64,000 nucleotides of DNA from an uncultured Nitrospirota bacterium. Its GTDB lineage: Bacteria; Nitrospirota; Thermodesulfovibrionia; Thermodesulfovibrionales; Dissulfurispiraceae. Below are positions 807 to 37,212 of the stretch, piece after piece. Below the pieces are notes generated by a model. The model searched no databases and was not told the DNA's origin. It saw only the letters and a list, made by a program, of their open reading frames with translations. The stretch lies in the NCBI GenBank assembly GCA_964540275.1, contig CAZIMB010000001.1:27210-91209 (forward strand). Direction: 5' to 3'. The position numbers were made by a program, and so were the translations under genes. How positions within the stretch are numbered: position 1 is the stretch's first letter; each line of letters starts with the position of its first letter.

Positions 807-1000
807 GATATTATGAGTAATATAAGCATAACTCGTAAAGAAACATTTTCATTGGCAAAGCAGGAATGGCTTAAGAGTTGTTAACCTTAGTATATGAAAA
901 AGACATAAAAGATTGTATTATTCTTATGATCACTAGTACAAACCTTTTTAAAGGCTATAATATCATGCCTGCCTTGCTTAATTACGGATTAGTGATAAGC
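807..1000 (+). repeat. Intergenic repeat element, copy A (near full length)
   Basis: Hand alignment to 5938-6155, 30551-30637, 36884-36950 and 24634-24688. Shared blocks are GATATTATGAGTAA..TCGTAAAGAAACATT, GGCAAAGCAGG, TTTTTAAAGG and CATGCCTGCCTTGCTTAATTACGGATTAGTG. The right-hand 32 nt match copy C at 27/32. Confidence 0.7.
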
Positions 1001-1045
1001 TATAAGATTGACAATGTTTCTTTATCTAATTATTATAAAAAGACA

Positions 1046-5338: not shown

Positions 5339-5665
5339 TTAATCACTTCTCTGCCATTTGCATTGCTGGTTTATGCATCTGCATTCTAGTTTAAATGGAT
5401 CAGGGTCATAACAATCCTTCCATTCACATGTTGTGATTACAGGCTCTTCGTGTTTAGATTGGCATACCTGCCCAGAACATCCACCTCTTATACAATCAAT
5501 ATCTACATCACATCTGCCAGAGGTTTCCCATCCACAAAAGCCCTTTTCAGGTTTTATGAATGACCCCAATGCGACCTGTGAAGAAAAAGCGGTATCAGGC
5601 AAGACTATGTAAATGGCTAATAGGATTACAAGCAATATAAAATATATTATGAAATTCTTTTTCAT
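5339..5665 (-). CDS. Small secreted cysteine-rich protein (10 Cys in the mature part)
   Basis: N-terminal signal-like hydrophobic segment MKKNFIIYFILLVILLAIYIVL. The core is CGWETSGRCDVDIDCIRGGCSGQVCQSKHEEPVITTCEWKDCYDP...CRCINQQCKW. As I recall it, this resembles the 'eight-cysteine-cluster' domain family. ATGA overlap with the upstream ORF. Confidence 0.6.
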   Translation of the reverse strand: MKKNFIIYFILLVILLAIYIVLPDTAFSSQVALGSFIKPEKGFCGWETSGRCDVDIDCIRGGCSGQVCQSKHEEPVITTCEWKDCYDPDPFKLECRCINQQCKWQRSD

Positions 5666-5871
5666 ATTTCTTTTTTAAGTTCTCCAATCTCTTTCTCAAG
5701 TTGGGCAATCCTATTTATCTCTTGGGTTTGAGGAGAGGAAATTTCTTGATGAATATTGCTATTTATTTTAATAGCCCCTGAAAATGTATGCGTATATCTG
5801 ATAAAATGTTTTTCTGTCTCAATTAAGCAGCCTAGGATCCGAATTTCTATATCATTTAAAATTATTTCCAT
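5662..5871 (-). CDS. DUF480/YceH-like remnant that looks in-frame internally deleted (69 aa)
   Basis: The N-terminus LNDIEIRILGCLIETEK resembles the YceH start (LTALEARVIGCLLEKQ). IRYTHTFSGAI and the C-terminal coiled coil RIAQLEKEIGELKKEI resemble the YceH C-terminus (RYMHLFSGEV...VEALEIEVAELKQ). About 145 central residues are missing. The comparison is from memory of E. coli YceH. Confidence 0.4.
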   Translation of the reverse strand: MEIILNDIEIRILGCLIETEKHFIRYTHTFSGAIKINSNIHQEISSPQTQEINRIAQLEKEIGELKKEI

Positions 5872-5937: not shown

Positions 5938-6155
5938 GATAGATCATTAGTACAATTCGTAAAGAAATATTTGCATAAGCAAGCAGGTGTGTCTAAAAGC
6001 CTTTAGACTTAGTTTTTGAAATAACATTATCTTATTTTCATCATCATTATCAGTGATAACTGATATATTTATAATCTTTCCATCGAAAATAAACAAATAA
6101 CCTCTTTTAAAGGGCTTGATGCCATGCCTGCTTGATTAAATAAAGGGCAATAGAT
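5938..6155 (+). repeat. Intergenic repeat element, copy B (longest)
   Basis: GATAGATCATTAGTACAATTCGTAAAGAAATATTTGCATAAGCAAGCAGG ... TGATATATTTATAATCTTTCCATCG ... CCTCTTTTAAAGGGCTTGATGCCATGCCTGCTTGATTAAATAAAGG. Perfect internal inverted repeat CAAGCAGG (5980-5987) / CCTGCTTG (6127-6134). Confidence 0.7.
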
Positions 6156-6190
6156 TTGAATACCATTAATAATTATGTATATAATATTGC

Positions 6191-24544: not shown

Positions 24545-24633
24545 TGTAACTACCCCATTTTACAGTATAAAGATAAATCTTGACATTATTAATAATAACC
24601 TTAATAATTCTTTTTTCTCAACAACTTCAACTC

Positions 24634-24688
24634 CAGAGTAGGTATCCAAAATTTCGTGATGGTGCATGAGATTTAATTAAGGCAAGTG
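24634..24688 (+). repeat. Intergenic repeat element, copy E (short, internally deleted, most diverged)
   Basis: CAGAGTAGGTATCC..AATTTCGTGA..GCATGAG.ATTTAATTAAGGCAAGTG. It shares CAGAGTAGRTATC with copy D, and the TTCGT / CATG / TTAATTAAGG blocks with copies A-C. Confidence 0.4.
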
Positions 24689-24710
24689 TTTTTTATGTGC
24701 ACTTTATTTA

Positions 24711-30400: not shown

Positions 30401-30532
30401 GGCAAGAACATTTTTAAGCTGAGACCTTTCTATTTCTGGAAATATCAAAAATTGGGAAAGTCTTTTTGTAAGCTCAAAGGTTTTTCCAGCCCCTGCCGAT
30501 GCCCTAAGTATATAAAAATGGGGGAAATTCAT
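27479..30532 (-). CDS. addA: AddA-like UvrD/Rep-family helicase with C-terminal RecB-type nuclease domain
   Basis: Walker A ASAGAGKTF, helicase motif IDEFQDTSPIQW, later VCLTRAK, C-terminal nuclease LRFDRLIIDKREVIVVDFKTG...QLKEY. Confidence 0.8.
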   Translation of the reverse strand: MNFPHFYILRASAGAGKTFELTKRLSQFLIFPEIERSQLKNVLAITFSNMATKEMKERTLLWLKGLALEDSKTIELFSDTLENVNDTIFKKKNIFDSKKISSLANGLLSQILVHYNDLQIKTIDSFTASIFSSCALDFGYYGDFDILMNNERFLKRSFDIFLNQRIVDKSIDDRILDTIEEIISNSTSSGFFKWDIKNEITKYFLEIYKLITSTGIELYEDIKDTNEIIKNIRERYQKIDRLIDSYGLVRSPRSGFLKLKKIIENENWNDLITLPVKLCPVNKHKNKCHEYEEVEREWKELVSYIGEFSLAYSRNYYTKFVSLFNDFKKLLEDEKIKESVIFIEDINKLLSDRITKDNPPEIYFLLGETVYHYFIDEFQDTSPIQWQCLKPLLENALSNGGSVLIVGDTKQAIYGFRNADWLIMKGLIDLKETFDSTNTLVYELDENFRSCRNILEFNEKVFKKNLYLDDEFGEIGKKIGHTTYNQKPRENNNSGYVYCELIEKNDESDLKDSIFLKLREIISDLLSRNFTYKDIAILTKKNNDVVEVAQWLVSNNIPAISYSSLDIRKRPIIIDIISLLSFLNSPLSNIDFVAFLQSEIFLKNSGISISQIRNFLFQNREESHLYVAFRREFGDIWNNFFEDIFSRVGYLPIYDLICNIYQTFNLLEYFPEDAASLIRLLEVIKDFEGNQFNNLTAFLKEIEESEEDIWDIRFPENLDAIKIMTIHKSKGLGFPAVIALIYEDSSKNDSLWIPREGEKRLVKITANLSEKADLLKKWYKEKKDFNKANALNSLYVCLTRAKNELYVIGIKKNKKLSFPLTLIPFEVKEMGEKSKLKDDDKKSVEIMPLYIKSNNEPRYLLEYQRYINTKETKRGDLIHAVLKSIKFYDNNTASIIKEEIERLKKLNPFDFDIKADEIINFIKRPEILQFFKKRDDREVFNELEFVNKRGDLLRFDRLIIDKREVIVVDFKTGEERNEHYLRQLKEYLEVAKDIWIDKDIRGFIIYFDSQEVSEVLL

Positions 30533-30550
30533 GATAATCTGTAAATTTTA

Positions 30551-30637
30551 TGATATATAGCTATCTTTTCATTTACATGTATTTTTTAAAGGATTTGATT
30601 TACCATACCTGCTTTGCCTAATTAAGGATTAGGGACA
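30551..30637 (+). repeat. Intergenic repeat element, copy C (right half only)
   Basis: TGATATATAGCTATCTTTTCAT...TTTTTAAAGGATTTGATTTACCATACCTGCTTTGCCTAATTAAGGATTAGGGACAG. 27/32 identity with copy A over the CAT..GGATTAG core. Its CCTGCTTTGCC is the exact complement of the copy A left arm GGCAAAGCAGG. Confidence 0.65.
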
Positions 30638-35700: not shown

Positions 35701-36867
35701 TTAACCCTGCAATTCAAGTATAAAGCATTTAAGATATTCTGTCTCGGGAACAGAAAGAAGGACAGGGTGATCCCTGCCCTGGGAGCGATATTCAATGACC
35801 CTAATATCCTTCTTTGAATCTTTTGCGGAACTACGAAGCATTTCACTGAAAATGTTTTTATCAATATGATAAGAACAGGATGATGTAGCAATGATTCCAT
35901 TATCCTTAATAAGCCTCATAGCCATGGAATTTATTTCCCTATATCCTCTTATCGCCTCTTTAATTTTTTGTCTACTTTTTACAAAGGCTGGTGGATCAAG
36001 TATTATAAAATCATAAAGACTTCTATTATCTATCTCTTTTTTAAGAAAAGAAAAAACATCCTCTTTTACAAAATTACATCTGTCTATGAGGTTATTTAAT
36101 ATGGCATTTTTTTTAGCCATGGTTAATGAAAAATCAGACTCATCAACAAAGGTAACATATGCCCCATTTTTAACTAGTTGTAAACCCCATGCCCCGGAAT
36201 AACAAAATAGATCAAGCCCCCTACCCTTTTTTATATATTTCCCCAAGGCAATTCTATTCTCTCTTTGATCAAGAAAAAAACCTGTCTTCTGCCCATGAAA
36301 AGGATCTACTTCAAAAAAGAGGTCTCCTTCCCTAATAATTGGCAAAACCTCAAGTTTTCCTTTAATTATTTTTTTTTCCATGGGAAGTCCTTCAAGGATT
36401 CTGGTAGGGGAGTCATTTCTGACAATAATAACATTCGGAGAAAATATCTCATCAAGTATATCAATAATTGTTTGCGCTAGTCTTTCCATTCCAAAGGTTA
36501 GAATCTGGATTACAAGACAATCTGCATACTTATCCACAATGACGCCAGGTAAAAAATCACCCTCACTGTAAATAACTCTAAAAGAATTATTATCAAGTAG
36601 TAACCTTTCTCTATATTTAAGTGCATTTCTTATCCTTTTATAGAAAAAATCACTATTAATGGGTTCCTTTTTCTTTGTTAGAAGTCTAATTGATATAAGA
36701 GAATGTGGATTAATATAGCCTATGCCTAAAAATTCCTTTGTCTTAGAATAAATCTCAACGAGATCGCCCTGTGAATAATCCTTAAGCCTGCTATATATTT
36801 CATTAGAAAATATCCATAAATGACCGCTACGCAATCTGCTTGTACGATTTAAATAAACCTTTTCCAT
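35701..36867 (-). CDS. rlmI: Class I SAM-dependent rRNA methyltransferase, RlmI-like (PUA + MTase)
   Basis: N-terminal RSGHLWIFSNEI (PUA-like), SAM-binding LDLFCYSGAWG, DPPAF motif ILDPPAFV. Confidence 0.8.
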   Translation of the reverse strand: MEKVYLNRTSRLRSGHLWIFSNEIYSRLKDYSQGDLVEIYSKTKEFLGIGYINPHSLISIRLLTKKKEPINSDFFYKRIRNALKYRERLLLDNNSFRVIYSEGDFLPGVIVDKYADCLVIQILTFGMERLAQTIIDILDEIFSPNVIIVRNDSPTRILEGLPMEKKIIKGKLEVLPIIREGDLFFEVDPFHGQKTGFFLDQRENRIALGKYIKKGRGLDLFCYSGAWGLQLVKNGAYVTFVDESDFSLTMAKKNAILNNLIDRCNFVKEDVFSFLKKEIDNRSLYDFIILDPPAFVKSRQKIKEAIRGYREINSMAMRLIKDNGIIATSSCSYHIDKNIFSEMLRSSAKDSKKDIRVIEYRSQGRDHPVLLSVPETEYLKCFILELQG

Positions 36868-36883
36868 ATTAAAATTATAACAT

Positions 36884-36950
36884 CAGAGTAGATATCATTA
36901 CTAAACAATAATTTGTAAGAAACATTAACTTAATCACAGATTAGGGTCCT
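36884..36950 (+). repeat. Intergenic repeat element, copy D (termini only, internally deleted)
   Basis: CAGAGTAGATATCATTACTAAACAATAATTTGTAAGAAACATT (left end, compare copy B GATAGATCATTAGTACAATTCGTAAAGAAATATT) is joined directly to AACTTAATCACAGATTAGGGTCC (right end, compare copy C CCTAATTAAGGATTAGGGACAG). Confidence 0.5.
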
Positions 36951-37032
36951 TACAAAAAATTTCATTGATTTATATTTTTAATATTGCTTATATCAACTGT
37001 TTTTTGTTATAAATATATTAAGATAATATTTT

Positions 37033-37212
37033 GCCTGCCCTGCTCGTGGTTAGGTGGAAGTGTTGATCCTGCAAATCAGATATTTTGGGAGTCAGCGTAA
37101 GGAAAACGGTGTGCAGGCCTCTCTTAGAAGAGGAAGCCTAAGTTTCCTTCAAGACACCCACCTGTCAAAACAGGGATCTGATTTTTCATCTACACGGCTG
37201 GGCGGGTTTTTT
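37033..37212 (+). ncRNA. Candidate structured sRNA of about 180 nt with a rod-like fold (6S-RNA-like architecture; family not confirmed)
   Basis: The only GC-rich island in a 670-bp AT-rich intergenic region. A hand fold gives nested helices: 34-48/193-206 (13 bp), 51-57/186-192, 73-81/176-184 (9 bp, perfect), 87-93/153-159, 99-105/143-149, an apical hairpin at 118-122/129-133, and a side hairpin at 161-174. There is a 15-nt asymmetric loop at 58-72. It ends in T6 (37207-37212). G-U pairs (36:204, 54:189, 57:186) only work on the plus strand. A -10-like GATAAT sits at 37022-37027. Confidence 0.55.

Follow-up and report, generated by a model that had tools for sequence, protein, structure and literature searches.

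The non-coding interval at positions 807 to 1,000 had been grouped by the initial annotation with four other blocks of the same stretch of DNA (hereafter the window; 64,000 nt, C1:27210-91209 of the source assembly) into a family of five diverged repeats, A to E, all in the same orientation. This raises two questions: whether such a family exists, and whether its members are mobile elements, paralogous small RNAs or a shared regulatory module.

A dispersed intergenic repeat with four copies in the window

The source assembly (1.76 Mb, 95 contigs, 36% G+C) was searched as a whole by iterative nhmmer, with copy B as the seed and a cut-off of E<1e-3. As sole query, copy B returned 30 matches at this cut-off; upon convergence the iteration had yielded 73 matches, which merged to 69 loci, approximately 66 of them in addition to copies A, B and C. 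All of the roughly 69 loci are intergenic; 18 are near full length and the others are halves or internally deleted forms, and the best E-values were 1e-46 within the source assembly and 1e-89 in a relative. A repeat finder confined to the window reported just one 37-nt match, between A and B, the family being visible only by whole-genome nhmmer. The features of the window that are referred to below are as follows.

822-827, no strand: ATAAGC, left putative 6-bp target-site duplication of copy A, read from the sequence
826-994, plus strand: copy A, a near full-length, decayed MITE with an internal deletion of about 40 nt
995-1000, no strand: ATAAGC, right putative 6-bp target-site duplication of copy A, read from the sequence
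1008-1036, plus strand: promoter-like site TTGACA-17-TATTAT, hisC-like gene (consensus scan, 11/12)
5949-6147, plus strand: copy B, better preserved than any other copy in the window
6156-6185, plus strand: promoter-like site TTGAAT-18-TATAAT, ubiD-like gene (consensus scan, 10/12)
24634-24688, plus strand: copy E of the initial annotation, outside the family and part of a separate repeat of about five copies
30533-30637, plus strand: copy C, internally deleted, consisting of the left 12-16 nt and the right 90 nt
about 36905-36946, plus strand: copy D, a mini derivative with the two termini only

Copies A, B and C are members of one dispersed repeat, as had been proposed; nhmmer assigned 75 bits to copy A (window 824-993, model positions 4-215), 140 bits to copy B (window 5949-6146, model positions 5-209) and 31 bits to copy C (window 30550-30634, model positions 126-216). 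A 12-nt left terminus of copy C, ATAATCTGTAAA, was recognized by eye at 30533-30544; since this terminus is retained, copy C is an internally deleted copy that spans 30533-30637. Copy D is too short to be within the reach of nhmmer, and was compared by an alignment of its two ends, for which it scored 52 versus 22.3 +/- 3.9 for 3112 other intergenic windows of the source assembly (z ~7.7); the few control windows that equalled this score resemble further mini copies. Copy D is accordingly retained in the family, as a derivative of two ends only. The left-end motif drawn in the initial annotation, (CA)GAGTAGATATCATTA, is not part of the element, whose actual terminus is (A)CCATAATCYGTAAAG.

Copy E, by comparison with the HMM, gave no match even with filters off. 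It belongs to a repeat of its own (window 24545-24710), with matches at C46:3565-3621, C43:29-84, C4:6693-6747 and C37:749-779; the sequence of this second repeat is AAAATTTCGTGATGGTGCATNAGATTTAATTAAAGCAGGTGTTTTTATGACCACCC, its other loci end near CACCATAATTAA or CACCTAATTAA, and its ends may be related to those of the main family, as in a sister element. A fragment at 721-735, previously read as a solo right end, scored -3.3 bits and is a chance resemblance. The five-copy family is thus real for A to D and for the loci elsewhere in the genome, and loses copy E and the 721-735 fragment.

Copy A is flanked by a minus-strand gene (1-711) on one side and by the hisC-like gene (ATG at 1047) on the other, and copy B separates a small minus-strand ORF (5662-5871) from the divergently oriented ubiD-like gene (6191); the two promoter-like sites predicted by the consensus scan, at 1008-1036 and 6156-6185, are just beyond the right ends of copies A and B, respectively. 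Copy C fills the spacer between two minus-strand genes, from the stop of a 999-aa gene (30658) to the ATG of a 1017-aa gene (30532), and 38 nt separate copy D from the start of another minus-strand gene, at 35701-36867.

Two observations concern the surroundings of copies C and D. The 1017-aa gene (N-terminus MNFPHFYILRASAGAGKT) has its ATG directly against the MITE terminus (30530-30545), with no Shine-Dalgarno sequence upstream; this start may be used without one, or may be mis-placed. A full-length 6S RNA gene is encoded at 37029-37212 on the plus strand (Rfam RF00013, 87.8 bits), with copy D approximately 80 nt upstream of it. At gathering thresholds, Rfam recognized only this 6S RNA and one tRNA in the window, and gave no match for the element.

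Structure of the consensus

The consensus is 211 nt long with 37% G+C; it contains no ORF of more than 55 codons and has no coding capacity. It is a long imperfect palindrome, predicted to fold into one hairpin of -76 kcal/mol (z = -8.7), in which a terminal stem of about 44 bp joins the ends CCATAATCCGTAA...TTACGGATTATGG. The stem is made of three parts, namely termini of 12-13 bp, a 19-bp arm, AAGCAAAGCAGG(Y)RTGGC, and a 12-bp arm, AGCCTTTAGA; read inward, both ends show CCATAATCCGTAA and then the conserved arms AAGCAAAGCAGG(Y)RTGGC...AGCCTTTAGA. The left arm has an extra unpaired bulge of 13 nt, AGAAACATTTGCA, and because this insert is present in the left arm only, the two ends of an element can be told apart.

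Related elements and target-site duplications

When the consensus was compared by BLAST with 40 relatives, eight genomes matched, among them the MAG 'Nitrospiraceae bacterium UBA665' (G002; hereafter UBA665). Two further genomes referred to below are 'Thermodesulfovibrionales bacterium Yes70-02' (G012; hereafter Yes70-02) and a complete genome (G007). Several UBA665 copies are 92-95% identical to the consensus that had been rebuilt from the old copies of the source assembly, and the element ends are present also in seven other genomes of the family and order. Of 201 genomes of the order, 37 contain the terminal 13-mer, versus three with a match to a reversed-pattern control; a contig scan of genomes gave 20 matches, in two MAGs only, and a metagenome scan gave five, all of them to small elements.

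Eleven UBA665 copies were aligned together with their flanks, and 6-bp direct repeats (TCATTA, TTTTTT, TCTTGT, TCAATG and TCATAC/TCATGC) were found to abut CCATAATCCGTAA...TTACGGATTATGG (CC...GG). Duplications of the same length flank two metagenome or related-genome copies (TAATGC, AAAATC) and a few copies of the source assembly, namely TAAAAA (C38), TAATGA/TAATAA (C24), TAATGT/TCATGT and, in the window, the ATAAGC of copy A, the left repeat of which takes in the two outermost bases of the expected terminus. Duplications, the search for which the initial annotation had suggested, are thus clean in the young UBA665 copies and no longer recognizable in most copies of the source assembly. In one UBA665 case (C28) the empty site could be reconstructed from the duplication as ...ACT ACA AGA TAA GTTT ATG GAG..., a 4-nt operon junction that took in 215 nt. 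No element was found upstream of ubiD in 13 relatives, among which synteny differs and none is of the same genus.

In UBA665, Yes70-02 and G007, the same ends also enclose unrelated cores of approximately 20 nt to approximately 330 nt; for this reason, one transposase probably served the whole superfamily across the Thermodesulfovibrionales. Many contigs of the source assembly (C14:2-82, C25:2-101, C56:23-88, C18:28968-29119 and C75:5601-5693) and of UBA665 (L024-L035) terminate within this element or within a sister element that has identical ends; the superfamily contributes heavily to the fragmentation of these MAGs. Two young UBA665 copies (L021, C155:25670-25726, and L022, C123) carry an identical nested insert of 57 nt at the same position, composed of two small hairpins (ccagagcaccaaaacctttggtgctc / gagcactcaacaagttgagtgctc), which has the appearance of a further, very small mobile palindrome or of a marker for a subfamily. 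In G007, at C1:156807, 1847076 and 1971941 (L056, L059 and L060), units of 19-39 nt are bounded by MITE termini, e.g. CCATAATCCGTAATTATGG, and their flanks form inverted rather than direct repeats (tgtcaaatt...aatttgaca; acctgt...acaggt).

The element is a MITE: it has inverted ends and a duplication of fixed length, does not code for protein, and exists in many copies, deletion derivatives among them. The assignment follows from the young UBA665 copies with clean 6-bp duplications, together with the metagenome or related-genome copies and copy A; this feature set fits the description of the bacterial MITE class (PMC2229807), and agrees with the MITE-like, non-autonomous nature that had been suggested from the window. 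We give a probability of roughly 85% to a joint explanation in which the copies are MITE relics that were moved in trans, spread in an old burst and have since decayed, with the wrong orientation purged by selection. A transposase acting in trans would have cut and pasted the element of about 211 bp, duplicating 6 bp of the target; the elements would then share transcripts with the adjacent genes, on the strand opposite to the consensus, and insertions in the opposite orientation would be removed by selection, e.g. through harm to the mRNA or to the translation start of the next gene.

Orientation and position relative to genes

Of 61 loci in the source assembly, 52 have the left (bulged) end directed toward a gene start (p = 1.8e-8; background 54%), at a median distance of 57 nt. 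The right end exhibits no such bias (27:34); where it faces a 3' end, the median distance to the stop is 28 nt. Between co-directional gene pairs the consensus strand is antisense to the genes in 28 cases versus 5 (p = 6.6e-5); 17 loci are in divergent and 3 in convergent spacers, where 11 and 7 were expected from spacer length. The same orientation noted for the window copies holds for A to D, the left ends of which are 116, ~80, 0-2 and 38 nt, respectively, from minus-strand gene starts, so that all four fit the rule. In the copies that remain, the bulged end points to the downstream gene start and the other end is positioned just past the upstream stop.

The young UBA665 copies follow the same arrangement; 15 of 18 left ends face a gene start, 3-89 nt away, and 9 of 10 right ends abut a gene 3' end, 2-42 nt away. 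There the element fills tiny stop-to-start spacers, and several ORFs end in its own CCA-TAA or CCG-TAA. At least eight UBA665 gene starts are within 21 nt of an element end, a proximity from which we infer that the mRNAs must start in the element or read through it. Many genes downstream of copies in the source assembly keep good promoter-like sites, as predicted from sequence, outside the element.

Since the outward 13 nt of both termini are identical, donation of a stop or a start alone cannot explain the orientation bias. Possible causes are the asymmetric bulge, an orientation-dependent effect on the mRNA, or a link with the direction of replication. With respect to the last of these, a local GC-skew proxy agrees with element orientation in 66% of cases versus 85% for gene direction, and in the four cases in which skew and gene direction conflict, the element followed the genes. 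Strand bias of genes in the source assembly is strong, in that 74% of long ORFs run in the direction that the sign of the local GC skew would predict (917 vs 327).

Of the alternatives to the joint explanation, the one that survives best, although we consider it unlikely, accepts a MITE origin and holds that some copies are now working parts of host genes, serving either as RNA modules, between cistrons or in a 5' leader, or as donors of signals (a stop codon, an ATG, a weak GGA Shine-Dalgarno sequence, an outward -35-like hexamer), such that the bias reflects benefit and not tolerance. The strength of the orientation and position bias in old and young copies alike speaks for it, as do the several upstream ORFs of UBA665 that stop at the terminal TAA of the element, the several UBA665 genes that start 3-21 nt past its end, too near for a promoter of their own, the abutment of copy C with the ATG at 30532, a Shine-Dalgarno sequence being absent between the two, and a -35-like TTTACG in the left end of copy A that pairs with a -10 in the flank on the minus strand. 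Against these points, the copies of the source assembly shed hairpin and sequence at a neutral-looking pace, many of its genes have good promoter-like sites between element and start or just outside the element, and the identity of the two termini makes stop/start donation insufficient by itself. The bias nevertheless keeps the shared regulatory module, one of the readings first suggested for the window blocks, alive as a secondary possibility.

A more specific form of this idea, which we regard as speculative and improbable, is that of an orientation-locked intercistronic element, one that inserts preferentially, and in one direction, at operon stop/start junctions or survives only there. Its ends would close the upstream ORF (CCA-TAA, CCG-TAA) and re-open the downstream gene (GGATTATGG, with the 13-nt bulge nearby), and the family would then act as mobile spacers by which operon mRNAs are rewired throughout an order of Nitrospirota.

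Age and decay of the copies

Copies of the source assembly share a mean pairwise identity of 69.5% (maximum 79%) and are 81% identical to the consensus, compared with a mean of 89% (maximum 96%) among UBA665 copies; predicted minimum free energies are about -34 kcal/mol in the former, which is about background, versus -66 to -88 in the latter. The family was recently active in UBA665 and is old and decaying in the source assembly, where an ancient burst has been followed by point mutations, internal deletions and erosion of the hairpin.

These comparisons bear on the paralogous sRNA family that had been suggested for the window blocks and, more widely, on a reading of the copies as sRNAs or cis-acting structured RNAs that persist through selection for their fold rather than through transposition. 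The consensus is indeed a very stable hairpin, G-U pairs are present on one of its strands, and two UBA665 subfamilies differ in concert on both arms. In the source assembly, however, the RNA fold of copy A was no better than shuffles (z = -0.03 on the plus strand, -1.0 on the minus strand), and that of copy B only modestly better (z = -2.5 and -1.8). When 43 stem pairs were scored across 22 copies, 77% were paired within a copy versus 78 +/- 8% for arms taken from different copies; the equality of the two values means that the arms decay independently, and this decay, with a fold near background, argues against a selection-maintained fold or an sRNA family in the source assembly. The apparent co-variation of the arms is shared ancestry in that genome, and in UBA665 it consists of subfamilies whose ends differ in concert. 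The strand asymmetry of G-U pairs in the consensus is absent from the source copies, which exhibit no strand asymmetry of stability either. Rfam has no match for the element in the window, no promoter-terminator pair framed it in copies A and B, which were scanned for one, and the duplications and the heterogeneous cores with common ends indicate transposition. The reading as structured RNAs is largely refuted for the source assembly, and we consider it very unlikely overall.

Search for a transposase

In agreement with the initial annotation, no transposase gene lies near the window copies, and the three DDE families searched have no intact gene anywhere in the source assembly. The only transposase trace there, among four families searched, is a decayed C-terminal fragment of IS1380 type (DDE_Tnp_1_4) with an internal stop, at C31:539-697. 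The autonomous partner that had been envisaged was not found with matching ends. In eight element-bearing genomes, none of the DDE_Tnp_1 (PF01609), rve (PF00665), IS1380-type (PF13701) and Y1 (PF01797) loci has these ends; the pattern TAATCYGTAAN{6,22}AGCAGG, applied to 68 genomes of the family, returned no pair of ends enclosing a gene; and neither the terminal 13-mer, searched over 201 genomes of the order, nor the metagenome scan gave a pair around a gene. Twelve regions of the complete genome G007 were inspected, and apparent end pairs of 986 nt and 2180 nt there were rejected as chance, since they enclose motB-like and trpBA genes. To our knowledge, many MITE families are without a known autonomous partner, and a partner is not required for assignment to the class.

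Movement of REP/REPIN-type palindromes by a RAYT (Y1) transposase would account for elements that are palindromic and intergenic, and Y1_Tnp genes were present in all seven element-bearing relatives searched. None is on the contigs of the source assembly, those of the relatives are not flanked by element ends, and REPINs make no target duplication where here there is one of 6 bp; we hold this origin to be highly improbable, slightly more so than the structured-RNA reading. Chance likeness of AT-rich spacers is the explanation for the 721-735 fragment and for a CAGAGTAGRTATC match that had linked E to D, and is refuted for copies A to D, given the E-values cited above, leaving it a negligible probability as an account of the family.

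Implications and comparison with known elements

The MITE family accounts for many contig breaks in MAGs of the order, and should be masked in hunts for sRNAs or riboswitches in these genomes. It is a dated marker, young in UBA665 and old in the source assembly, and supplies a naturally occurring set of operons in which cistrons are, or are not, separated by a 200-nt hairpin. Its orientation feature aside, it is an ordinary non-autonomous transposon family; the feature worth an experiment is the association of one particular end with gene starts, together with the tight stop-to-start fit. A literature search returned no report of MITEs in Thermodesulfovibrio or Nitrospirae; the family is new for this lineage, and the kind of element is well known.

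IS1380-family insertion sequences of the same bacterial family have ends starting with CC(C)A.AAT and generate short, AT-rich duplications (5 bp at L117). Past the first few bases, however, their ends cannot be aligned with those of the element, their duplication is ~5 bp rather than 6 bp, and they are absent from the most element-rich genomes, UBA665 and Yes70-02; a mover of IS1380 type is a weak lead. The family resembles REP/REPIN-RAYT systems in forming abundant intergenic palindromes, often between co-directional genes, whereas REPINs are shorter, lack a target duplication and are tied to a flanked RAYT, in place of the 6-bp duplication and absence of a flanked Y1 gene seen here. With RUP of pneumococcus and MITEAba12 of Acinetobacter it shares inverted ends, a target duplication and presumed movement in trans by an insertion sequence (PMC2229807, PMC6382973); for RUP a partner with matching ends, IS630-Spn1, has been proposed, whereas none was found for the Thermodesulfovibrionales family.

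Correia/NEMIS elements of Neisseria are palindromic, 100-155 bp long, co-transcribed with their neighbours and without a transposase of their own, and their termini add expression signals (PMC2229807). The family described here is similarly made up of small, palindromic, non-autonomous elements with long inverted ends and many copies beside genes, although no sequence similarity to Correia/NEMIS is seen or expected; those elements duplicate TA, have Correia ends of 26 bp and are restricted to Neisseria, in contrast to the 6-bp duplication of varied sequence, the length of ~211 bp, the ends CCATAATCCGTAA and the Nitrospirota hosts found here. The ERIC/IRU elements of enterobacteria differ in sequence, host and size (127 bp), and are alike in being imperfect palindromes of transcribed intergenic regions, transcription being in our case the probable condition of the spacers. 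The effect of ERIC on neighbouring mRNA depends on its orientation (De Gregorio 2005, as cited in PMC2229807); such an effect was measured for ERIC, whereas for the Thermodesulfovibrionales elements we infer it from the 28:5 ratio between co-directional genes.
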